Origin: Candidatus Poribacteria bacterium
Lineage (GTDB): Bacteria; Poribacteria; WGA-4E; WGA-3G
Direction of reading: 5' to 3'
Length of the DNA stretch: 64,000 nt
NCBI GenBank assembly: GCA_022821065.1
Contig: JAJEEK010000037.1
Coordinates: 16,642 to 80,641 of the forward strand
This document shows positions 15,000 to 47,757 of the stretch, in pieces. Position numbers and translations under genes: made by a program. Within the stretch, counting starts at the first letter, position 1; every line of letters starts with the position of its first letter. The notes beneath the pieces were generated by a model. It made no database searches. It worked only from the letters and a program-made list of their open reading frames with translations, and was not told where the DNA came from.

Positions 15000-15152
15000 T
15001 AGGACTTACGCACTTTTGAAAATAAGTGGTTCTGTTAGATGAAATGTTTCTGAAAACACAGCGTTCTTGTGTCACAAACTAACAGTTTTGCGGTGTACTC
15101 ACCCAGATGCGACGTGCATCGTGGTACAAAAGAGTGTACTGCGTAAGTCCTG
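15000..15152. mobile_element. MITE copy 2 (153 bp, same family as 5007-5127, 5 bp target-site duplication AATTG)
   Basis: The ends are TAGGACTTACGCA...TGCGTAAGTCCTG. AATTG flanks it at 14995-14999 and 15153-15157. It carries a roughly 31 bp internal insertion relative to copy 1 and shares the core GTCACAAACTAACAGTTT. Confidence 0.7.
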
Positions 15153-16049
15153 AATTGAATTCAGGTACTGCAGATTCCGTTCTGCGCTTTCGTAGGGGCT
15201 GCCCATTCCGGGTAAGACATCCTGCTCTACAACGATCCAACCGTCGTAGTTCCGATTTCGCAATTCCGCAAGGAACGCTGGAAAATCGACATCACCGTTC
15301 CCTAATTCACAAAAGACACCGTTGCCGACAGAGGTAAAATAATCCCATTCGTCTCGCCGAGAACGGGCAGCGATGTCGGGGTGGCAGTCCTTGAAATGGA
15401 CGTGCCAAATTCTATCGGCGTGTCGGGTGAACGCTTCAAGTGGGTCTCCACCACCGAATCGGTAGTGTCCTGTGTCGAAACACAGCCCGATGAGGTCAGG
15501 ATCGGTGCGTTGCATCAGTGTGTCGATTTCTGCTGCGGTCTCTATGTATCCGGCGCAGTGGTGATGGAAAACGGTGCGTAGACCTGTTTCTTCTCGTACG
15601 GCTTTGGCGATACGGTGTACGCCTTGTACAAAAATGTCCCACTGTTCGGGTGTCAATCCGTGTTCGGGACGGATACGACCAGCGTATTGGGTGCGGTGTT
15701 CTGTGGTGGCGTTGTCGTCTGAAAGGACGATGAACGGTGTGTCGCCAGCGACATCTGCTAACAGGCGTGCGTGCTGTAGGGCTGAGGCTTCACCGGGGGC
15801 GTGTGTCTCCGCATCGGCGAGTGCGACGGCTACAAACGCGCCTAAGAGTGTTAGCTCACGGGAGGCGAGTTCGGCGCGGAGTTGTTCGGGATCGGTCGGC
15901 ATGAACCCCCAATCGCCTAATTCGGTTCCTGTGTAACCGATGGCGTGCATTTCGTCTAATACTTGTATATAATCGGGTGCTTTGCCGTCTAACTCAAACT
16001 CAAGCACACCCCATGAGCATGGGGCATTTGCGATTTTCATTCGACTCAT
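15099..16049 (-). CDS. Sugar phosphate isomerase/epimerase (xylose-isomerase-like TIM barrel)
   Basis: MKIANAPCSWGVLEFE..., HHHCAGYIE, FDTGH and VHFKD are typical of the AP-endonuclease-2/IolE-like TIM-barrel family. The last 18 codons plus the stop (15099-15152) are encoded by the MITE. Confidence 0.75.
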   Translation of the reverse strand: MSRMKIANAPCSWGVLEFELDGKAPDYIQVLDEMHAIGYTGTELGDWGFMPTDPEQLRAELASRELTLLGAFVAVALADAETHAPGEASALQHARLLADVAGDTPFIVLSDDNATTEHRTQYAGRIRPEHGLTPEQWDIFVQGVHRIAKAVREETGLRTVFHHHCAGYIETAAEIDTLMQRTDPDLIGLCFDTGHYRFGGGDPLEAFTRHADRIWHVHFKDCHPDIAARSRRDEWDYFTSVGNGVFCELGNGDVDFPAFLAELRNRNYDGWIVVEQDVLPGMGSPYESAERNLQYLNSIQDLRSTLFCTTMHVASG

Positions 16050-16136
16050 AAGTCCTCTCTATAATGTTATTCCAGTAGCAGATCGTGACTGGCAGTATCT
16101 CAGGATACGAAGTATAGGATTTCAGTATTGGTATAT

Positions 16137-17429
16137 CTAATTCTGGGTTTTACTATGCTGCAACATTGTCACGATGTCTTTCGGTAACTGAACATTGTTT
16201 TTTTCCTCAAAATCGGCAGCACTCTCGTAGATTTTATGAAATTCAGTGATAATATTTATTTTTAAATTTCTGGCAAAAGTTAGGTCGAATTTCGCACTTT
16301 CCCATTCTTTTAGGTGTAACCACATGATACCGCGAGCAGCGTAGACCTCGGTAAATTTCGGTTTCAGTTCTAAGATCTTATCATAATCCTGAATAGCACA
16401 TTCAAATTTGTCTGTATGGAAGTAAGCCAAAGCGCGTGTGGCATAAACTTCTGGAAACTCTGGATTTAGTTCTATTGCTTTGCTAAAGTCTTCAATAGCC
16501 TTGTCATACTCACCTTTTTTACCGTAAACTTTACCGCGATCATAATAGGTTTCAGCATCATCGGGCCGGAGTTTTATCTCTATACTGAAATCTTCAATGG
16601 CTTTGCTATACTTATCTTTTTCACTATAAAGGGTGCCGCGACAACCATACGCATCGGCATGTTCTGGGTCAAGTTTTATCACCGCGCTAAAATCCGCAAT
16701 AGCTTTGTCATACGCTTCTGTCTCGTCGTAAAGCTTACCGCGATTGTAATATGCATCGGCATAATCGGGGTTGAGTTCTATCGCTTTGGTATAATCTGCG
16801 ATGGCCTTGCCAAAATCAACTTTATCACGGTAAACATTGCCGCGATTGTAATAGGCTTTGGCATAATTAGGTTTTAGCATTATTGCCTCACTGTAGTCTT
16901 TAATGGCTTTGTCATACTCTCCGATATAACTATAAGCGTTGCCGCGCTTAATATAGTCTTCAACCATTTTTGGGTTGAGGGTCAAGGTTGCAGTGTAAAG
17001 TTTAATGTATCCTTCGGCATCTTCCCTATTTTCAATTAGGAGGCGAGAGGGACCACCATTCAACTCTTGGCAGATTCTGGTAAACCCGATCAATCCAGCA
17101 ACTCCGAGTCTATCAACAAGGGCTTGACTTCCTATTTCATAAACCTCAGTATCTGTCATTTCTCGGATTTCGCTTTGAGGTGCAGCAAATCTTTTGGCAC
17201 GTGCGCGTTCTTCTGCTTCTCTTGCTGTCCGTCCATCTTGGATCTGTTGGACGATAGTGTCAATATCTGGTTGGTCGGCTAACAATTTATGCCGGTCGAC
17301 GGAGTAATCGCCTTTACCCGGTTTGCAATACCGAATAAACCGTTGCACCTGAGAGGCACCGAGTTTATCCGTAAGGACTTTACGACTTATTTCATAAAGT
17401 TCATCATCTGTCAGTTCTATTGCGTTCAT
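16137..17429 (-). CDS. TPR-repeat protein with two N-terminal copies of a ~45 aa antitoxin-like module
   Basis: Module 1 is ELTDDELYEISRKVLTDKLGASQVQRFIRYC and module 2 is MTDTEVYEIGSQALVDRLGVAGLIGFTRIC. About 8 TPR units of the AxxYxxRGxxY type follow. The start overlaps the PIN gene by 26 nt. Confidence 0.65.
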   Translation of the reverse strand: MNAIELTDDELYEISRKVLTDKLGASQVQRFIRYCKPGKGDYSVDRHKLLADQPDIDTIVQQIQDGRTAREAEERARAKRFAAPQSEIREMTDTEVYEIGSQALVDRLGVAGLIGFTRICQELNGGPSRLLIENREDAEGYIKLYTATLTLNPKMVEDYIKRGNAYSYIGEYDKAIKDYSEAIMLKPNYAKAYYNRGNVYRDKVDFGKAIADYTKAIELNPDYADAYYNRGKLYDETEAYDKAIADFSAVIKLDPEHADAYGCRGTLYSEKDKYSKAIEDFSIEIKLRPDDAETYYDRGKVYGKKGEYDKAIEDFSKAIELNPEFPEVYATRALAYFHTDKFECAIQDYDKILELKPKFTEVYAARGIMWLHLKEWESAKFDLTFARNLKINIITEFHKIYESAADFEEKNNVQLPKDIVTMLQHSKTQN

Positions 17430-17892
17430 TTTCTGTTATTTCCTGAAGCCATGTAAAGGGATTTTCAACATGGACGTGAAGTTGTGAAGCATCGCGTTTC
17501 GCTTTTCTAAGCAATTTGTCATCTGTTGTGAGAAAGACATCCACAGAACCGCTTTCAGAACAGGCAAGATGCAAAGCATCCAACTCTCCAAAGCTTAATA
17601 CTTCAAGTTGTTTGGATCTTGATTTTTCACCAATTCCAACGGAAACAGCCTGACGCACTTCAGTCAACCACACTTTGATGCGGAGACGTTGATCCGAATC
17701 AGGGATACGATTTATCTCAAAGATCAAAGCATCACTGGAGATCCAGTCCCAACGTCCCGCACGAAACTGAGAAATAATCCAATTGATAGCTTCGGTTTCT
17801 TGCCGGATTCGAGTTTGCGTTTGATTGTCAAAAAAACGGCTCAAGCAACATGTATCAAGATAAATTTTCCAAGGCTGCAAATTGTGCTGCAC
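17404..17892 (-). CDS. PIN-domain nuclease (VapC-like toxin fold)
   Basis: The acidic PIN residues are in the expected contexts: IYLDTCCL (D), SSDALIFE (D/E), ELDALHLA (D) and FLTTDDKLL (DD). Confidence 0.7.
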   Translation of the reverse strand: MQHNLQPWKIYLDTCCLSRFFDNQTQTRIRQETEAINWIISQFRAGRWDWISSDALIFEINRIPDSDQRLRIKVWLTEVRQAVSVGIGEKSRSKQLEVLSFGELDALHLACSESGSVDVFLTTDDKLLRKAKRDASQLHVHVENPFTWLQEITENERNRTDR

Positions 17893-18026
17893 AAGTAGAT
17901 CCAGACTCCGAAACGTGAAACAAAGTAGAATGCTTTAATGGGTTAGTATATCACAACAAAGGAACAGATCAGAGGCATTCAATTTTTAAAACTCCCTGTC
18001 AGAAAAGGTAGATTTGGGTTTCAGAT

Positions 18027-20270
18027 TCACCGCTGTGTTAACATTAACGCGATGTCTTCCGGTAACTGAAGATCATTCTTCTGCTCAAAGTCAGCAACGC
18101 TTTCGTAGTCGTTATAAAATGCAGCAGTAATATCCATTCCCATGTTCTTTGCTTGAGTCAGATCTGCCTTGGCTTTCTCCCATTCTTTTAACTGTAACCA
18201 AGCCTCCCCCCGAGCCCCGTATGCCTCGCCATAATCGGATTTGAGTTTTATCGCAAAACTATAATCCTCTATAGCCTTGCCAAGTTCACCTTTCATACGA
18301 TACGCAACGCCTCGCATACGGTATACTTCAGCATCATTAGGTTCAAGTTTTATTGCTACGTTATAGTCCTCTATTGCTCCGTTAGTTTTACCTGTGATAG
18401 CATAAGCAATACCACGGTTGCTATAGGCTTCGGCATAATCAGGTTTGAGTTCTATTGCTTTGTTAAGGTCTTGTATTCCTTTGTCATACTCGCCTTTGTT
18501 GAGGTAAGCAGCACCACGATTACTATAGGCTTCGGCATAATCGGGTTTGAGTTCTATTGCTTTGTTAAGGTCTTGCATTCCTTTGTCATATTCGCTTTTC
18601 CTAAAGTAAGCGGCACCACGGTTGCTATAGGCTTCGGCGTAATCAGGTTTGAGTTCTATTGCTTTGTTAAGGTCTTGTATTCCCTTGTCATATTCGCTTT
18701 TCCTAAAGTAAGCGGCACCACGGTTGCTATAGGCTTCGGCGTAATCAGGTTTGAGTTCTATTGCTTTGTTAAAATCTTGTATTCCCTTGTCATATTCGCC
18801 TTTGTCAAGGTAAGCGGCACCACGGTTGCTATAGGCTTCGACGTAATCAGATTTGAGTTCTATCGCCTTGCTAAAATTTTGCAAGGCATTGTCAAGTTGA
18901 TTTTTTTTTCCATATTCCACTCCGAGATTGTTATAGGCACTTGCATAATCAGATTTCAGGTTTACTGCCGTGCTAAAGTCTGCAATGGCACGATTAACAT
19001 CGCCTTTATCGCTGTAAGCCATTCCGCGATTGTTATAGGCGTTCACATAATAGGGGTCAAATTCTATCGCTTTGTTATAGTTCTTGATAGCATTGTCAAG
19101 TTCACCTCTCTCGTCATAAACCACGCCTCGATTGTTATAAGCCTTGGAAAACTTTGGATCTAACTTTATTGCTTTATTATAGTCTTCGACCGCCAGATCA
19201 ACCTCACCTATTTCTTTATAAATTAGACCGCGGTTATTATAAGAATCTGCAGATTCCGGTTCCAAATCTATCGCCGTGTTAAAATCTTGGAGAGCACTGT
19301 CGTGCCTACCATTTTTGCCGTAAGCCACTCCACGATTATTATAGGCATTTGCACAATCAGGTTCCAAATCTATCGCTATATTAAAATCTTTGAGAGCTAA
19401 GTCAAATTCACCTTTATCGCGATAAATCGCACCGCGATTATTATAGGCTTCAACACAATCAGGTTTCAATTTTAAGGTTTCGGTGTAATGTGCGAGAGCT
19501 TTTTCATACCAGTTTTGTTTTTCTTTTCTTTCGCTTACTAAGTCTCCTCTGTTTTGATTGATTACCCCTTTACCAAACTCAAGCATAGGATTGAGGTATC
19601 CGCCTAACCATTTTATAAATCCATGGACATCTTTGTAAATCTTTTTGGTAGATATGTTGTGATACTTTTCAAGATGATTTAGGACGGGAAGTTTGAGTTC
19701 TTTTGGAATAACCACCACAAGGTCTGGATTGATAAAACCTTTTGGTGATCGGAGGAGTACACTTTTTTGGGATTCCACCCGTTTAATTGCTTCTGAAGGT
19801 GTTTCCGATTGGTAATCTTCTGACTCTCTTTTTTGTAAGATAACCCGGCCATCTTTGTGGTAGGATCTATCGCAGGCAAAAAAGAGAGCAATCAGGTAGT
19901 CAGTTGTGAAGTCTATAAGATTGGTCTTTCCACCATAGTGTTGGAGTTGTGCTAAGATTTCAAAATCACTGATTGTTTCGCTGCCAACTTCATACAAATA
20001 CTCTTTTGCCGCTTCCAAAGTCCCCTTTTCCATTTTCTCAATCTGAGGTTCAATAATTTTACGGTACTCTTCTATACCCTCTTCCATTATAGCATCAGTC
20101 AATAATGCGCGATATAGATTTGAGGAAACCTTTCCATGGTAAGGATGTTCTTTATACTCTTCCGGTTCACCCCGATAGATGTAGTCTCCATCAGCGGATT
20201 TTTTTATTATTTCTTGAATCTTTTCCAAAACGCTATCAAGATTCTCTTGGATAGTGGATTCACCGTTCAT
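18027..20270 (-). CDS. FRG-domain protein fused to a long TPR array
   Basis: The N-terminal region contains LAQLQHYGGKTNLIDFTTDYLIALFFAC, which matches the FRG-domain core motif. About 14 TPR units follow. The C-terminal ~50 aa are shared with the 16137-17429 protein. Start set at ATG 20270, preceded by GGGAGAGAG. Confidence 0.65.
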   Translation of the reverse strand: MNGESTIQENLDSVLEKIQEIIKKSADGDYIYRGEPEEYKEHPYHGKVSSNLYRALLTDAIMEEGIEEYRKIIEPQIEKMEKGTLEAAKEYLYEVGSETISDFEILAQLQHYGGKTNLIDFTTDYLIALFFACDRSYHKDGRVILQKRESEDYQSETPSEAIKRVESQKSVLLRSPKGFINPDLVVVIPKELKLPVLNHLEKYHNISTKKIYKDVHGFIKWLGGYLNPMLEFGKGVINQNRGDLVSERKEKQNWYEKALAHYTETLKLKPDCVEAYNNRGAIYRDKGEFDLALKDFNIAIDLEPDCANAYNNRGVAYGKNGRHDSALQDFNTAIDLEPESADSYNNRGLIYKEIGEVDLAVEDYNKAIKLDPKFSKAYNNRGVVYDERGELDNAIKNYNKAIEFDPYYVNAYNNRGMAYSDKGDVNRAIADFSTAVNLKSDYASAYNNLGVEYGKKNQLDNALQNFSKAIELKSDYVEAYSNRGAAYLDKGEYDKGIQDFNKAIELKPDYAEAYSNRGAAYFRKSEYDKGIQDLNKAIELKPDYAEAYSNRGAAYFRKSEYDKGMQDLNKAIELKPDYAEAYSNRGAAYLNKGEYDKGIQDLNKAIELKPDYAEAYSNRGIAYAITGKTNGAIEDYNVAIKLEPNDAEVYRMRGVAYRMKGELGKAIEDYSFAIKLKSDYGEAYGARGEAWLQLKEWEKAKADLTQAKNMGMDITAAFYNDYESVADFEQKNDLQLPEDIALMLTQR
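18410..18930. repeat. Near-identical 102 bp (34-codon) tandem repeats inside the FRG-TPR gene (about 5 units)
   Basis: CTATAGGCTTCGGC recurs at about 18421, 18523, 18624, 18726 and 18828. The encoded units AIELKPDYAEAYSNRGAAYFRKSEYDKGIQDLNK are almost identical. Confidence 0.85.
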
Positions 20271-20406
20271 TACTCTCTCCCGCAAGTGCAATTTTGTTCT
20301 ACATTGAAACAACACTTGTTCACTACAAAGGTACCAATTGAATTGTCCACCAAATTAAACTTATCCCAATCGTGCAGTCGCTATGCATTTTCACGATTTG
20401 GCTTCA

Positions 20407-20700
20407 TTAGATTATTGGATCCATAAAACTCGAAGTTTCAAGTCTTCCACTCCAAGAAACACGCTCTTTAAAGTCTGAAAAAGCAGAAGGATCTACAGAA
20501 AATCGAGGATTTACGATTTTGGTTCCTATATGAATAGCCGGGACCAACTGTGTAGCGACTTCTACGTTCGTAATGAATTCGCGCCGAAATGCCTCTTCAG
20601 CTTCAGCGACGGCTTCATCTTCAGTCTGATTTTCGTAATAATCAATGATCTTTTGCACACGTTCTTCATTCCAGCCAGGGGGGAATTTATTCTGTTTCAT
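20407..20700 (-). CDS. Putative antitoxin-like small protein
   Basis: PPGWNEERVQKIIDYYENQTEDEAVAEAEEAF is a motif I associate with small partners of BrnT-like toxins. It overlaps the upstream ORF by 4 nt. The C-terminal half looks atypical. Confidence 0.35.
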   Translation of the reverse strand: MKQNKFPPGWNEERVQKIIDYYENQTEDEAVAEAEEAFRREFITNVEVATQLVPAIHIGTKIVNPRFSVDPSAFSDFKERVSWSGRLETSSFMDPII

Positions 20701-20984
20701 CGTCTGCCTCTCCTTCGTTGTCGCCGGCGGTAAGCCGTTAAAGGTTTTCCTTTCAATTCGTAAGCTGTAATTACAAAAACACTATTGGGTTGCGGATCTC
20801 TAACGTAAATTACTTGCAAGTAGCGTCCACTTTGTGTTTGACCAATGGCAATTCTTGAGTTATCACGCCCTGCCCAATCTTCGCTAGGATTCAGTAAAAT
20901 ATCTTCAATCTCATCTTCATCAACATTATGGTTATAAATATGAGGCAAGCCAGTGTCTTGATCAGTGTTAAAGCGGATATTCAT
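20697..20984 (-). CDS. Putative BrnT/DUF497-like toxin
   Basis: The 95 aa product has HNVDEDEIEDIL...RIAIGQTQSGRYLQVIYVRD...VFVITAYEL and a basic tail. The 4-nt overlap with the downstream ORF gives a typical type II TA layout. Confidence 0.35.
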   Translation of the reverse strand: MNIRFNTDQDTGLPHIYNHNVDEDEIEDILLNPSEDWAGRDNSRIAIGQTQSGRYLQVIYVRDPQPNSVFVITAYELKGKPLTAYRRRQRRRGRR

Positions 20985-21284
20985 TTACTGTTCCTTGAAT
21001 TAGTGTTCGTGCCTCATTTTTCTTGCACAGAACCATCAGAGTTAAGTATAGCATAACACACACCACATCGCAAACTGTTTCTGATGGAGAAAACATAAAT
21101 TCCACTAATAGAAAAAAATATGGTATACTGCAACCGACTCTAACCCAAAGACGCTATTGATTTGCCACGTTTAAAATGATAGGTTAGATTGACTGAATAG
21201 TTGGGTTTCACTACGTTCAACCCAACCTACAAACCATCAAAATAATCATGACGGAACACCACACTCTTATCAGGGTAAAAAATT

Positions 21285-23177
21285 ATGTTTCCTACGATTG
21301 AAGCACAGACGCAACTCCAGACACCACCAGCATGGGCAGTGCTTGAACGTCAACTTATTGATAAAATGAATGCGGCGGGACCGCAGGTCTTGGAGAGATA
21401 TACACGCCCAGATGGCACGCTGTTCTGGCCGACAAACCCGGATTTTCAGAGTATCGACGGACTCGACGATGCCTATGAGAGTTTTCATAACTGGCCCCTC
21501 TTTTATATGCTCGGTGGCGACGCGCAATTTTTGGTCGATGCGGATATGGAATTTGATGTTATCACAAACGATATGGCACGATATGGTACCGGTCACGGTT
21601 ATCCGATGGTCGTGAAGGAATATCAACCCGGTTACGACTGGTTTCATCAAGGCGAAGGGAACTATCTCTTTTATATACTCTGTATGGCGGATCCGTCAAA
21701 CGCGAAGCATATCGAGCGCGCGAAACGGTTTGCTGGGTTCTTCATGAACGAAGACCCTGATGCTGAAAACTACGACAAACAGCATAGGATTATCAAATGT
21801 GCGATGAACGGCAGTCAGGGAGCGGCGTTTTGGGCGTTCGGTGGACATCCGTATTGGCCCTGGGATGGCTACAATATGCCGTTCTACGATGTACCGGGAT
21901 GCACGAGTCATGAAGCGGTACGAGAAAACGAAGCGTTGCGCGTCCGCATGGGGCAGCTGATCTGTGAGCGGCAAGGTGTTGGGGATTCAGTCGTCAACCT
22001 CGCAGCGACAACGCTTGCTACGAATGCCTATCTGCTGACTGGTCAAGAGAAATATAAGGCGTGGGTGACGGAATACGTTGACGCATGGATAGCACGCACG
22101 GAGCAGAACGGCGGTATCGTCCCTGATAACGTCGGACTTACGGGAAAGATTGGCGAACATATAGACGGTAAGTGGTACGGCTCTTATTACGGTTGGAGTT
22201 GGCCCCACGGATGGCATAGCGTCGGGCAAGCGGTCAGTATTGCTGGACAGAATGCGGCGTTGCTTTGGCGAGACTTGGCGTACCTTGATTTCCCACGCTC
22301 CCAGATTGACGTTTTAATCGAGCAGGGGATTGAGAGAAACGATCAACTCTATGTGCCACAGAAGTACGGCGATCCGGGGAAGGTTAACTATGTCCCTGGG
22401 GCTTGGCTGCAATATCCGATTACAAACGAAGATGGAACGGCTTTGCAAGTGGACGGTTGGTTTGAATTTATGCCGATGCACGCCTCGGATGTTGCACACC
22501 TATGGGCACTGTCAATGGATCCGGCGGATCAAAAACGGGCAGAGAACATCTCGAAAAAGACGGGTTCAAAATTCGATATTAACGCGTGGCATCATACGAA
22601 GGATAGCGGCGGACACGACGGATCATGGCTTGCGTATATCCGGGGTGAATATCCAGAGTATCCAGAAGCGATCCTCAATTACAACCTTTCGCAGGTTGAG
22701 GCACGTCTTGATTTTATGGCGAACGATGAAGAGGATCCGGCGAACTATGGAGATGCGTATTTTCAAAGGCGTAACCCGATCACGTGTGAAGGACTGGTGC
22801 AACTGACCTGCGGGGGTCCATTGCCACACTATAACGGTGGGTTGCTCGTGACGCGGTTACGGCATTTTGACGGACAACGAAAGCGGCCCGGGCTGCCACC
22901 GGATGTCGGTGCCTTGATTACCGAAATGACAGCGGACACGACGGAGCTGCGGCTCGTCAATCTTAACACGACGGAACGGCGAGAAGTTATTGTGCAAGCC
23001 GGTGCGATGGGGGAACATAATTTTAGTTCAGTGCGTGTCAAAGACAGTCAAAATGGACAAGCGACATCGGTCAATGGAACGTATTTCCGTGTTCAGCTGC
23101 CGCCGAATACAGAAATTGATTTAGAATTGGGGATGGAGCGTTTTGTGAATGCGCCGTCATATAGGTATCCGTGGTAA
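21285..23177 (+). CDS. Conserved hypothetical protein (630 aa), no domain recognised
   Basis: This is a long uninterrupted ORF with ordinary composition. I could not name a motif with confidence. It may be a glycan-active alpha/alpha-barrel type, but that is unsupported. Confidence 0.45.
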   Translation: MFPTIEAQTQLQTPPAWAVLERQLIDKMNAAGPQVLERYTRPDGTLFWPTNPDFQSIDGLDDAYESFHNWPLFYMLGGDAQFLVDADMEFDVITNDMARYGTGHGYPMVVKEYQPGYDWFHQGEGNYLFYILCMADPSNAKHIERAKRFAGFFMNEDPDAENYDKQHRIIKCAMNGSQGAAFWAFGGHPYWPWDGYNMPFYDVPGCTSHEAVRENEALRVRMGQLICERQGVGDSVVNLAATTLATNAYLLTGQEKYKAWVTEYVDAWIARTEQNGGIVPDNVGLTGKIGEHIDGKWYGSYYGWSWPHGWHSVGQAVSIAGQNAALLWRDLAYLDFPRSQIDVLIEQGIERNDQLYVPQKYGDPGKVNYVPGAWLQYPITNEDGTALQVDGWFEFMPMHASDVAHLWALSMDPADQKRAENISKKTGSKFDINAWHHTKDSGGHDGSWLAYIRGEYPEYPEAILNYNLSQVEARLDFMANDEEDPANYGDAYFQRRNPITCEGLVQLTCGGPLPHYNGGLLVTRLRHFDGQRKRPGLPPDVGALITEMTADTTELRLVNLNTTERREVIVQAGAMGEHNFSSVRVKDSQNGQATSVNGTYFRVQLPPNTEIDLELGMERFVNAPSYRYPW

Positions 23178-44797: not shown

Positions 44798-46504
44798 TTA
44801 TCTTATTCCTTGATTGTCTACAATTCCGTGTCCCTCTTTGATGCGGAGGATTTGGTTTGATTTTAGATTAGAAAACTGTTCTATGTGTCCGCTCTGCCAG
44901 TGGATTTCGAGGGTGTCGATTTCTGTCCGTTTCCCGAGTCCGAAATGGACGCGAAGATCGCTTTGCGATAGGTAACTTGCACCGCTGCGGACCTCTTTAT
45001 AAAGAGACAAATCCCGCGCCTTTAGGATTATCTTTGTTCCGATTCCCGATGCGTTGCTCTGTGTGCCAATCGGTTGGATTGTCAGCCAATGGTTACGATT
45101 GCCGCCTTCGTTGCGGAGGAGTGTTGGAGGTTGATTGGAGTTGTTGAGAAAGATATCGATATCGCCGTCGTTGTCGTAGTCGCCGAACGCTGCGCCGCGG
45201 CTAACCTTCTTAGACAGTTGTGCCAACCCGATTTCAGCGGAGGCATCCGTAAAGTGATAAGTGCCATCTTGTTGGCGCGCATTACGGAAAATCAAATCAA
45301 ATTGCGGATACGTGCTGTCTGAGAACAATGCGATGTTTTCTTGAAGATGTCCATTGGCAACAAAAAGGTCGAGAAGTCCATCGTTGTCGTAATCGAAGAA
45401 TTCGACTGCCCACTTAAAATAGGGGAGCGTCACTGCGCCAATTCCTGCTGTAAAAGAGACATCCGTAAAAAAAGCGGCACTTTCGTTTTGATAGAGGACC
45501 ACTGGCAGTGAAGAAGCATTGCTGACAACGAGATCCAGATAGCCATCGTTATCGTAATCACCGAATGCGCTGCCCATACCGCTTCCGGGAAACCCGTTCC
45601 CATCATAGCCTGTGCCGGTAAGGTCGGCAGCCTCAGTAAAGGTGCCATCGCCGTTGTTCCGGTAGAGAAAATCTGCTTCCATATCGTTGGCAATATGAAG
45701 GTCTGGGTAACCGTCGTTGTCATAATCGCCGATCGCGACAGCGAGACCGAGCGCGCGGTGTGAAATCCCAGAGGCTTCCGTGACATCCGTGAAAGTACCA
45801 TCGCCGTTATTGCGATAGAGGATGTCAGGTTCGCTGACAAAGTGGCTGCCAGCAATCTGATCCGTAGGGCTACAATAGGTTCTGATACCGCGCGTTTCCC
45901 ACCATTGGTTATCGTCAATAGAGAATTTCATGTAGTTAACGACGTATAGGTCAACATCTCCATCTACATCGTAATCGAGGAAAGCACAACTGGTTCCCCA
46001 GCGTTCATCACCGACCCCAGCCTGTTGTGTAATATCCGTAAAAGTGCCGTCTCCGTTGTTATGGTAGAGTGTGTTACGTCCGTAGTTGGTTACGTAAATT
46101 TCGGGGTAGCCGTCATTGTCAATATCCGCGGCGGCGCATCCGACACCGTAGCCGATGTCACCGACGCCTGCTTTGTCTGTAAAATCGGTAAAAGTGCCGT
46201 CCCCGTTGTTGTGATAGAGTGTATTTCGTGGGAGTTGTGCTTGTGATGTTTTTTCAGTGTTAGGCGTAGGCGGTGGGATAGACGTAGCGTTCACGACATA
46301 GAGATCGAGATGCGTATCGGCATTAAAGTCAAAAAAGAGTGCCCCGGATCCGAGGGTTTCTATGAGGAATTTTTCGCCGGTTCTGCCATCAACGTGTTGG
46401 AACGTGATACCTGCGATGGCAGTCGCATCAACAAATTTGACTTCGGCAGTCGCAGAAGTCATCAGAATGAAGAAGAGGGGAATGCAACAACAGAGGCATC
46501 TCAT
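44798..46504 (-). CDS. FG-GAP/VCBS-repeat protein with C-terminal ASPIC/UnbV domain (CRTAC1 family)
   Basis: The motif YHNNGDGTFTD recurs, with DxDxDG Ca-binding-like loops (DYDNDGYPD). The C-terminal GIGTKIILKA...VRSGASYLSQSDLRVHFGLG is ASPIC/UnbV-like. A signal peptide is present. Confidence 0.85.
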   Translation of the reverse strand: MRCLCCCIPLFFILMTSATAEVKFVDATAIAGITFQHVDGRTGEKFLIETLGSGALFFDFNADTHLDLYVVNATSIPPPTPNTEKTSQAQLPRNTLYHNNGDGTFTDFTDKAGVGDIGYGVGCAAADIDNDGYPEIYVTNYGRNTLYHNNGDGTFTDITQQAGVGDERWGTSCAFLDYDVDGDVDLYVVNYMKFSIDDNQWWETRGIRTYCSPTDQIAGSHFVSEPDILYRNNGDGTFTDVTEASGISHRALGLAVAIGDYDNDGYPDLHIANDMEADFLYRNNGDGTFTEAADLTGTGYDGNGFPGSGMGSAFGDYDNDGYLDLVVSNASSLPVVLYQNESAAFFTDVSFTAGIGAVTLPYFKWAVEFFDYDNDGLLDLFVANGHLQENIALFSDSTYPQFDLIFRNARQQDGTYHFTDASAEIGLAQLSKKVSRGAAFGDYDNDGDIDIFLNNSNQPPTLLRNEGGNRNHWLTIQPIGTQSNASGIGTKIILKARDLSLYKEVRSGASYLSQSDLRVHFGLGKRTEIDTLEIHWQSGHIEQFSNLKSNQILRIKEGHGIVDNQGIR

Positions 46505-47643
46505 TGTTCGTCGGCGTACGCTTTCTGTTTTTCGCGGGCATGCTGTGCCTCATCTTGTAATCCGAGTGTGTCACAGATTTCGGAGAGCGTATCCCAATAA
46601 TTCGCATCTGTGGGAGCCAGACGGACAGCTGTCCGTGCGTGGAAGAGAGCCTTGTCCAAATTTGTCTTCAATTCTGTATAGCAGACTGCGATATTATTAT
46701 GTGCGATTGCGAGGTCTGTATCAACAGCGAGTGCCTGCTGATACGCTGCGATAGCGGATTCAATTTTCCCTTGCTTGTGGTATGCATGTCCTAAGTTGTA
46801 GTGTGCAGTTGCTAAGTCGGGTGCGAGAGAGATCGCGTGTTTATAGTTCGCAACGGCATCAGCAAAACGGCGGCGAGCGAGGTAGACGATACCGAGGTTA
46901 TTGTAGCCTCTCGCGTCATCAGGATGCTTTTTGACCCACATTTCGGCTTTCTCAAGGAGTGGATCCGTTTGGCTGAGGGTTTTAAAAAACGCCATCGCCG
47001 ATGCGGCTTTCTCTTTTTTACCGAGTTTGATGTAAATCTGGGCGAGTTGATAGTATGCCTCCGTATTGTCCACCTGAATTTCAATCGCTTTCTGAATAGT
47101 GGTGGTTGCCGTATCTAAGTGTCCCTGCTTTGCGTAGGTTTTACCTAACCCTAAAACGGGAGCGGCATCTTTCGGATTAAGGCGTATGGCATCTTTGTAG
47201 GCGCGTGCGGCGTCTTCAAAATTGCCCTGTTTCAAGTGGATTTCAGCAAGTCCGGTGTACGGATCACCCCATTTAGGGTCTGTGGTGATAGCGTGTTTAA
47301 ACGCCTCGGCGGCGCGAGGGAGGTCACCCTGTTTGAGGTAAACCAAGCCGATGTTATAATGGGGTTCAGCCGCCATAGGAGACAACGCGAGTGCCTTCCG
47401 GTAAGCGTCGAGTGCGGCATCGTATTGCTTTAATTCGGAATAGGCAACACCGAGTTTGTTGTAGAGGATCGGGGAATTTGGGTCAAGTGCGATGGCTTTC
47501 TTGTATTCGGCGACAGCCTGCTCGAATTCGCCTTGTGTATGGTAGGTGGTGGCACTTTTGTAATACTTTTCAGAAGGTGTATCGGATAAAGTGGTATATG
47601 AAAAAGAAACGAGGAAGATCAATATGGTGGGATATTTTAGCAT
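46501..47643 (-). CDS. TPR-repeat protein (secreted), co-transcribed with the CRTAC1-like gene
   Basis: It has about 9 TPR units (A..Y..A...P....A.YNLG). The N-terminal signal is MLKYPTILIFLVSFSY. The start is preceded by GGAGGA. A 4-nt overlap joins it to the downstream gene. Confidence 0.75.
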   Translation of the reverse strand: MLKYPTILIFLVSFSYTTLSDTPSEKYYKSATTYHTQGEFEQAVAEYKKAIALDPNSPILYNKLGVAYSELKQYDAALDAYRKALALSPMAAEPHYNIGLVYLKQGDLPRAAEAFKHAITTDPKWGDPYTGLAEIHLKQGNFEDAARAYKDAIRLNPKDAAPVLGLGKTYAKQGHLDTATTTIQKAIEIQVDNTEAYYQLAQIYIKLGKKEKAASAMAFFKTLSQTDPLLEKAEMWVKKHPDDARGYNNLGIVYLARRRFADAVANYKHAISLAPDLATAHYNLGHAYHKQGKIESAIAAYQQALAVDTDLAIAHNNIAVCYTELKTNLDKALFHARTAVRLAPTDANYWDTLSEICDTLGLQDEAQHAREKQKAYADEQ

Positions 47644-47757
47644 ACGCTTTCCTCCAATGTAAGGACAGCGTTTGCACCGCCCTATAGTCTGTTGCGTTAG
47701 AGTCAGCGCGTTTTTCAATTTTAAGTCGCGTTAGATACAGTCTATAAAAATTCCAGT

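Follow-up and report, generated by a model that had tools for sequence, protein, structure and literature searches.

A VapC-like PIN gene coupled to a TPR-bearing partner in Candidatus Poribacteria: a possible toxin-antitoxin system in reversed gene order

What is the role of a small PIN-domain gene whose 3' end is overlapped by a gene encoding a short helical module and, behind it, an array of tetratricopeptide repeat (TPR) units? The question is raised by a locus in a 64,000-nt stretch of DNA of Candidatus Poribacteria, a sponge symbiont (contig JAJEEK010000037.1); the whole stretch is called the window here, and all window coordinates refer to it. An earlier note on the same sequence had proposed that the two proteins form a toxin-antitoxin (TA) pair, with the antitoxin joined to a sensor array. 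We compared both genes with their relatives in other genomes, and the reading at which we arrived, with a probability of about 0.6, is that of a VapBC-like type II TA system in reversed order, whose antidote is fused to a possible TPR sensor. Toxin-first order, a previously undescribed modular partner family and a large expansion in Poribacteria set this system apart among VapBC-like TA systems.

The gene pair in the window and its linkage in other genomes

Both genes are read from the minus strand. The elements recognised in them and next to them are the following, the functions of the two signal-like elements being presumed from their sequence and position:

17404..17892 (-): PIN-domain gene, 162 aa, GTG start, encoding a VapC-like putative toxin (open reading frame (ORF) list and Pfam PIN)
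16137..17429 (-): partner gene, 430 aa, with module, linker, half-module, TPR array and cap (ORF list and domain searches)
17404..17429 (-): 26-nt overlap of the PIN 3' end and the partner 5' end, read from the sequence, the two genes being in different frames
17441..17444 (-): AGGA, Shine-Dalgarno-like, 11 nt 5' of the partner ATG and within the PIN coding sequence
17945..17953 (-): TGnTATACT, extended -10-like element and candidate promoter, ~53 nt upstream of the PIN start
17235..17429 (-): module 1 (residues 1-65), putative PIN-binding element (match of the module hidden Markov model (HMM) to residues 1-65)
17166..17234 (-): charged linker helix (residues 66-88, REAEERARAKRF), a helix at 56-81 in the AlphaFold2 (AF2) model and conserved in alignment A2
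17055..17165 (-): partial second module (residues 89-125), helical hairpin only (BLASTP repeat; HMM match 89-121, to the first half of the model only)
16251..17009 (-): TPR array (residues ~141-393), a half unit and 7 units (Pfam TPR_1, 1.9e-56, 6 stretches; custom TPR HMM, 7 matches)
16161..16334 (-): last TPR unit and C-terminal cap (residues 366-423), common to other poribacterial TPR proteins

The overlap was found as the earlier note had described it, the partner ATG being placed 26 nt before the PIN stop codon in the other frame. The partner start codon is supported by the N-terminal sequence MNxxEMTD, which is conserved in the 84 homologue clusters obtained with the N-terminal 141 aa of the partner as the search query, while the GTG start of the PIN gene is conserved in orthologous loci together with an upstream GGAG. 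The TGnTATACT element is kept in the upstream regions of the window and of two other loci (L004 and L005); a two-hexamer promoter scan did not pick it up. The pair sits in a low-GC island, with a GC content of 0.405 over 16050-21284 vs 0.49-0.50 in the flanks and a GC content at third codon positions (GC3) of 0.36-0.38 inside vs 0.52-0.54 outside, in agreement with the AT-richness previously noticed in this region.

Judged from an alignment and from the structural model of a relative, the PIN protein has a VapC-like fold with the catalytic acidic quartet kept. Its Pfam PIN match is marginal (24.1 bits, the gathering cut-off being 23.6). In the alignment of the PIN family (A1, 34 sequences) no variation is seen at D13, E59, D105 and D124 and very little at D125, which confirms the conserved acidic residues first seen by eye. 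The evidence on fold was taken from the AF2 model of P0181, a natural fusion of PIN and module that is 57% identical to the window PIN. This model is compact (pLDDT 83.9, pTM 0.83; the PIN core is above 90 and the last helix of the module at 87-89), and a Foldseek search of the PDB matched it to VapC structures with TM scores of 0.62-0.74 (normalised to the target) and a probability of 1.0, among them Shigella VapC, P. horikoshii VapC4, M. tuberculosis VapBC11 and Rv0301. The top 20 matches comprise 16 VapC or VapBC entries, 3 other PIN-domain proteins and one exception at rank 17, a chain of the CbCas9-PcrIIC1 complex. Compared with its orthologues in L004, L005 and L006, the PIN gene has a dN/dS of 0.33-0.38.

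A scan with the PIN alignment over one genome per bacterial or archaeal species gave more than 487 PIN relatives, and the best 80 loci (L numbers) were examined by calling their ORFs and searching these with HMMs derived from the alignments of PIN and of the module. Since the partner ORFs were called at the longest possible length, some of their starts are over-extended. A co-oriented module gene directly adjoins the PIN gene in 80/80 loci, in the following arrangements:

Partner downstream, single module: 24 loci
Partner downstream, double module: 32 loci, including L010, where the partner is cut by the contig end
Partner downstream, double module and TPR: 13 loci, from different genomes
Partner downstream, single module with a Trypsin_2 protease and 8 TPR units: 2 loci
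Partner upstream, double module: 8 loci
Module in the same ORF as PIN, fused: 1 locus

The PIN gene thus comes first in 71/80 loci (including L010) and in the one further, fused ORF. In most of the 70 loci with a downstream partner, the partner ORF either reaches over the PIN stop codon or directly abuts it; an offset of -26, as in the window, is the commonest, and -38, -29, -23, -14, -4 and +1 are among the others. The linkage of a VapC-like PIN gene to a gene with a conserved module of ~65 aa is therefore without exception in these loci, and translational coupling of the two is the usual case. The survey of co-occurrence for which the earlier note had called speaks for conserved pairing, and its supposition that the N-terminal module is akin to small stand-alone partners of this PIN subfamily also held, homologous proteins of 68-83 aa being the downstream neighbours of PIN in the 24 single-module loci.

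Partner architecture follows the clades of a neighbour-joining tree of the PIN sequences. The window belongs to a PIN clade of 14 members, in which every partner consists of a double module and TPR units, so that TPR-fused partners not only recur but mark a whole clade; L032 and the pair of protease-TPR loci (L025 and L037) represent separate TPR acquisitions. Distances between PIN sequences are correlated with those between modules (r = 0.47), a value reached by 0/999 permutations.

Almost all of the best 80 loci are from Poribacteria, with a few from Latescibacterota, Pyrinomonadaceae and Anaerolineae, and there are several copies per genome (e.g. 5 on OY764016.1). Partner genes are also found as orphans, with no PIN gene, and partners of the TPR type and of the 157-aa type are often neighbours (L001 3107-5104, L005 25-1202, L007, L079 and L080). 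In L001 two tandem partner genes are followed by a TPR fragment and then by GmrSD genes, and L007 carries two complete PIN-partner pairs in tandem.

A partner family with a constant module and an interchangeable end

The partners make up a family that had not been described before: the module is common to all of them, and the C-terminal end is interchangeable. According to the secondary structure of the AF2 model, module 1 of the window opens with two short helices, and a conserved loop KPGKGDYSVDRHKLL then leads into the first part of a long helix. Across 54 aligned single-module relatives there is no exception at L19 and R46 and hardly any at L23, G24, F31, G38, G40 and Y42; the signature common to the stand-alone module proteins is LG..RF....G.GDY...R. 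The claim of two tandem modules of ~45 aa needs amendment. An internal repeat does exist, residues 5-40 and 101-136 being 42% identical (BLASTP, pairwise E = 3e-9), but its second copy is incomplete: the two-helix hairpin is retained, and the segment G-D-Y-x-x-D/E-R-H, which the partner has only once (GDYSVDRH, residues 40-47), is missing. A second copy reduced to the hairpin, with no motif, is also the rule in most double-module relatives.

The 84 clusters found with the N-terminal region are nearly all unnamed or assigned to Candidatus Poribacteria and fall into size groups of ~240 aa or longer with TPR, ~157 aa without TPR, and fragments of ~90 aa, several of which look like frameshifted copies. 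An exhaustive profile search yielded only 242 representatives, mostly one-module proteins of 68-80 aa. Pfam and NCBIfam gave no recurring family in the N-terminal 141 aa, in each of its halves, in the stand-alone modules or in 54 family members; profile searches of PDB sequences with alignments A1, A2 and A6 gave nothing significant, and Foldseek searches of the PDB and BFVD with the model of the N-terminal region gave nothing below E = 1. This model is all-helical (mean pLDDT 77), with low confidence in the conserved loop, as would be expected if this segment takes up its fold on a partner. No obvious signal peptide was seen by eye in the partner N-terminus (MNAIELTDDELYE...), no predictor having been run.

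Some more remote likenesses were met in these searches. The 622-aa protein P0347 matches the module profile weakly (E = 4e-5); it has an Ala/Lys-rich N-terminus and five repeats resembling SEWKAVYNKLGKT.GS.EAARFLQQVKPGAA.F, lacks the GDY..RH motif, and its repeats may, judged by sequence, be distantly related to the module hairpin. The P0277 cluster, a further relative, is HicB-like according to one annotation source.

The estimate of about 8 TPR units was fair: Pfam recognises 6, the custom HMM 7, and inspection by eye 7 full units and one half unit followed by the cap. The cap has ~55 aa, and its region is 59% identical (E = 9e-26) to the C-terminus of a neighbouring protein in which a TPR array is joined to an FRG domain (FRG-TPR). 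Tails of this type also occur in the partners of L001, L005, L006, L007 and L013. The NCBIfam family TPR_END_plus matches the partner as well, the best stretch reported being earlier in the array (residues 295-327). Among relatives the array varies from 2 to 12 units.

The array is conserved by purifying selection, yet it recombines independently of the PIN-module part. Against the orthologues in L004, L005 and L006 the dN/dS of the TPR region is 0.14-0.24, close to that of the module region (0.12-0.38) and below that of the PIN gene; the low values in the TPR region show that the array is a functional coding region and not a decaying one. At the nucleotide level the identity with L005 is 90-97% over the promoter region, PIN, the module and the first TPR units, and falls to 79-88% in most segments of the array and to 70% in the cap. 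With L004 it is mostly 90-99% up to 16704 and 50-78% beyond, while with L006 it is uniformly 70-86% over both genes. Taken over PIN and module, the identity with L005 and L004 is 93-99%, as against 66-88% within the array. As the breakpoints within the array differ between comparisons, recombination or gene conversion of the TPR cassette is indicated. The fusion to TPR is old and maintained by selection.

Could the long partner ORF itself be an artefact, a frameshifted or misassembled join of an antitoxin gene and a TPR gene, or else a decaying pseudogene? Many database relatives are indeed truncated or frameshifted (forms of 88-99 aa and 192-239 aa), and in L013 the array is divided between a 290-aa gene and a separate TPR ORF of 245 aa. 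However, intact orthologous partners of 425-426 aa are present in L005 and L006, which are independent assemblies, dN/dS against these two stays at 0.14-0.19 from the module-TPR junction through the array, and fusions of double module and TPR recur in the 13 loci listed above. On these grounds we rejected an assembly artefact, and an explanation of this whole kind seems very hard to believe.

Ends other than TPR arrays are found on the same module. At L084 (1177-2054) PIN is followed by an overlapping 144-aa partner in which the module is joined to a GerE/LuxR helix-turn-helix (HTH), and at L086 (230-1715) by an overlapping partner of 340 aa, whose additional domain of ~260 aa has no Pfam match. 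The partner of ~565 aa in L025 (3464-5161) and L037 (3464-5158), from two Poribacteria genomes, comprises one module, a trypsin-like serine protease (Pfam Trypsin_2, 3e-22) and 8 TPR units.

Finally, the module may be joined to PIN itself. Single-chain fusions of 221-230 aa, with PIN N-terminal and the module C-terminal, form at least 11 protein clusters (P0181, P0190, P0350-P0358), one of which has 24 members on long contigs; the corresponding locus in the survey is L021 (2938-3666). Such occurrence of both parts in one polypeptide (a 'Rosetta stone') argues for a direct functional link. At the protein level the join reads ...TWLQExT-MNxNQL..., and the window DNA at this place reads ACA GAA A ATG AAC, a comparison which suggests that a single A missing from a short A-run has put the module ATG in frame. 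The members of a fusion cluster include gene calls of 228 aa and 74 aa for one region, and in fused genes the module may also be made separately from its internal ATG.

The toxin-antitoxin reading and its rivals

If the pair is a TA system, the PIN protein would be a Mg2+-dependent endoribonuclease that is harmful when free, and the module would bind it and block its active site through the conserved loop G-D-Y-x-x-D/E-R-H. In FitAB, a complex of VapBC type, Arg68 of FitA plugs the acidic pocket of the PIN toxin; by analogy, the invariant R46 of the module could plug the active site of the window PIN. The partial second module probably pairs with the hairpin of the first and would give a pseudo-dimeric core. 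The TPR array may bind a protein or peptide and make neutralisation depend on the presence or absence of this ligand, which is the weakest step of the proposal. A phage or cellular protein, on being bound or lost, might then displace the antitoxin or make it unstable, so that the nuclease is released.

The likeness to VapBC (Shigella VapBC, Neisseria FitAB, M. tuberculosis VapBC11) extends from the PIN fold, the four conserved acidic residues and the VapC proteins as best structural matches to the tightly linked, co-transcribed small partner gene and the many paralogues per genome, besides the arginine just mentioned. The differences are in the partner and its place. In VapBC the antitoxin gene comes first and encodes an N-terminal DNA-binding domain for autoregulation, whereas here the toxin gene is the first in ~90% of loci; the partner family is absent from Pfam, NCBIfam and the PDB and has no detected DNA-binding domain; and the window partner has a duplicated module and a C-terminal TPR array, only a rare relative having an added GerE HTH. 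Toxin-first type II systems exist in MqsRA and HigBA, and MqsA binds its toxin via the N-terminal domain and DNA via a C-terminal HTH. The present system shares with them the gene order and a partner with the toxin-linked element N-terminal and variable functions C-terminal, and the L084 relative has exactly the MqsA-like layout. It departs from them in that its toxin is a PIN nuclease and not RelE-like, and in that the window partner carries TPR units in place of the HTH.

Other parallels concern sensing. In the fused TA defence protein CapRel the antitoxin domain acts as the sensor (PMC9712102; for further proteins of this type see PMC11578894), and the same parallel has been drawn for fused HicAB (10.1101/2023.12.08.570793). 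Relatives of the window system likewise occur as single chains, and the idea of the antitoxin part as sensor is shared. Unlike the CapRel type, the window system has PIN rather than a toxSAS toxin, its parts are separate genes and the candidate sensor is an added TPR array; in that type the sensor domain binds a phage protein and releases the toxin, with an anti-phage phenotype, and what the window system offers on this side is its context, a defence-like island, and a mosaic TPR array. TPR arrays serve as sensors in STAND/Avs-type and other defence proteins (PMC7159879). Here, too, an array is joined, via the partner, to a nuclease effector among defence-like genes, but neither an NTPase, which in STAND proteins lies between the effector and the TPR sensor, nor another switch domain was found in PIN or partner, and the effector is a separate small PIN protein. 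With the 'eukaryote-like' TPR proteins of Poribacteria the partner shares the kind of TPR units and the C-terminal cap; it differs from them in that its array is fused to a PIN-linked module and inherited with a PIN clade. Literature searches returned no description of a PIN/VapC toxin with a TPR-fused antitoxin, nor of the module partner family.

A number of observations weigh against a TA system with a TPR sensor. In PADLOC-DB v2 the window PIN matches only PDC-M11A, weakly (17.8 bits), and the partner gives only generic TPR matches (E 1e-4 or weaker); a scan of IMG/VR for PIN relatives found none. Searches of Pfam, NCBIfam and structures detected no AbrB, RHH, PhD or HTH DNA-binding domain in the module, which leaves autoregulation, a common feature of VapBC, unexplained. 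By Pfam, NCBIfam, PDB sequence and Foldseek searches the module resembles no characterised antitoxin family, and it is therefore called antitoxin-like from its genomic context. Database names of family members are 'hypothetical protein' or 'PIN domain-containing protein' throughout. The covalent fusions of PIN and module are hard to reconcile with the classical model of a degraded antitoxin. As to the sensor, the TPR part shows purifying selection and not the diversifying selection often seen in sensors, and arrays with the same cap are borne by unrelated proteins of the organism, e.g. FRG-TPR; the fusion may reflect a promiscuous TPR cassette rather than a dedicated sensor.

The last two points also favour an ordinary TA pair with a structural TPR array that senses nothing, but oligomerises, stabilises or scaffolds the partner or replaces a missing dimerisation or DNA-binding domain; selection on the array is plainly purifying, and the same capped cassette is found on the unrelated FRG protein next door. 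The number of units varies freely among relatives, and the same PIN family is also served by single-module partners of ~70 aa that bear no extension, so that the extension is dispensable for the core function. This explanation deserves to be taken seriously, but we consider it unlikely in view of a fusion kept over the whole PIN clade (14 loci, different species) and of its renewed, independent origin in L032 and in the protease-TPR form. Furthermore, the array was swapped while PIN and module stayed near-identical, a pattern more typical of specificity determinants. A different proposal would remove the pair from TA systems altogether and make the module-TPR protein a targeting or regulatory subunit, recruiting an otherwise controlled PIN ribonuclease to particular protein-RNA complexes. 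Eukaryotic SMG5/6/7 combine PIN and TPR-like domains and bear a loose likeness to such an arrangement; TPR arrays typically bind protein partners, the natural PIN-module fusions fit a stable holoenzyme as well as an inhibited toxin, and the absence of a detected DNA-binding or autoregulatory domain is in line with it. What makes it quite improbable is the company and the behaviour of the family, which is massively paralogous, lies in low-GC variable islands shared with restriction-modification and other TA genes, includes orphan partner genes and varying gene order, and has VapC toxins as its closest structural neighbours. These traits are typical of selfish or defence modules and not of housekeeping RNases.

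A TA system with an antidote fused to a possible TPR sensor hence remains the reading that we prefer. A further-reaching version of it, which we put forward as a possibility and with some doubt, is that the module family is a general adaptor tethering a VapC-like nuclease to interchangeable C-terminal sensor or regulator domains, namely a TPR array, a protease with TPR units, an HTH, the additional ~260-aa domain or the toxin itself, and that its TPR forms, expanded in sponge symbionts, are ligand-triggered switches in abortive infection or stress, their specificity being set by the recombining TPR cassette. If this were true, it would define a new class of sensor-coupled PIN defence systems, and the significance would be high if the TPR and protease-TPR forms proved to be ligand-triggered switches. 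The release of type II toxins is a long-standing question, for which 'the antitoxin is the sensor' is a leading idea with few examples so far. The present family offers a natural series for testing it, with a module bearing nothing, TPR units, a protease and TPR units or a DNA-binding domain, or fused to the toxin. It also provides a defined partner family that is missing from Pfam and NCBIfam and explains part of the excess of TA and TPR genes in sponge symbionts.

The genomic island and its other genes

The island lies between two genes, at 15099-16049 and 21285-23177. The flanking genes encode a 630-aa protein and a xylose-isomerase-like TIM-barrel protein, and their products are 80-86% identical in amino acids to those flanking the pair in L004, L006, L008 and L013, and this conservation across species indicates a syntenic variable site whose cargo differs between genomes. 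At this site and at related loci the cargo comprises an N6/N4 DNA methylase, BsaWI-type restriction endonucleases, HSDR_N, GmrSD and a Sipho_Gp157 protein; a transposase-like ORF is also among the cargo of the syntenic site. In sponge symbionts, genes of TA and restriction-modification systems are known to be over-represented (PMC5649159). Besides the pair, the island in the window contains:

18027-20315 (-): FRG-TPR gene, 762 aa, 135 nt upstream of PIN, with an N-terminal FRG domain (Pfam 3e-13) and ~13-14 TPR units
20407-20700 (-): gene for an acidic protein of 97 aa, with a 4-nt overlap with the DUF4258 gene
20697-20984 (-): DUF4258 gene, 95 aa (Pfam 1.9e-6), of a family with RelE/barnase-like toxin fold

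The DUF4258 protein and the acidic protein are probably another TA pair in the low-GC island. For the FRG-TPR protein PADLOC gives a match to PDC-S15, a candidate single-gene defence system (E = 6e-16). This protein was considered as a part of the PIN-partner system and rejected, as only the window and L005 combine it with the pair. Its gene contains 4.5 tandem copies of a 102-bp unit, equal to one TPR unit, at 18411-18874; their identity of 91% points to recent repeat amplification. Far from the island, at 46501-47718 (-), the window holds one more ORF with ~6 TPR-like units recognised by the TPR HMM.

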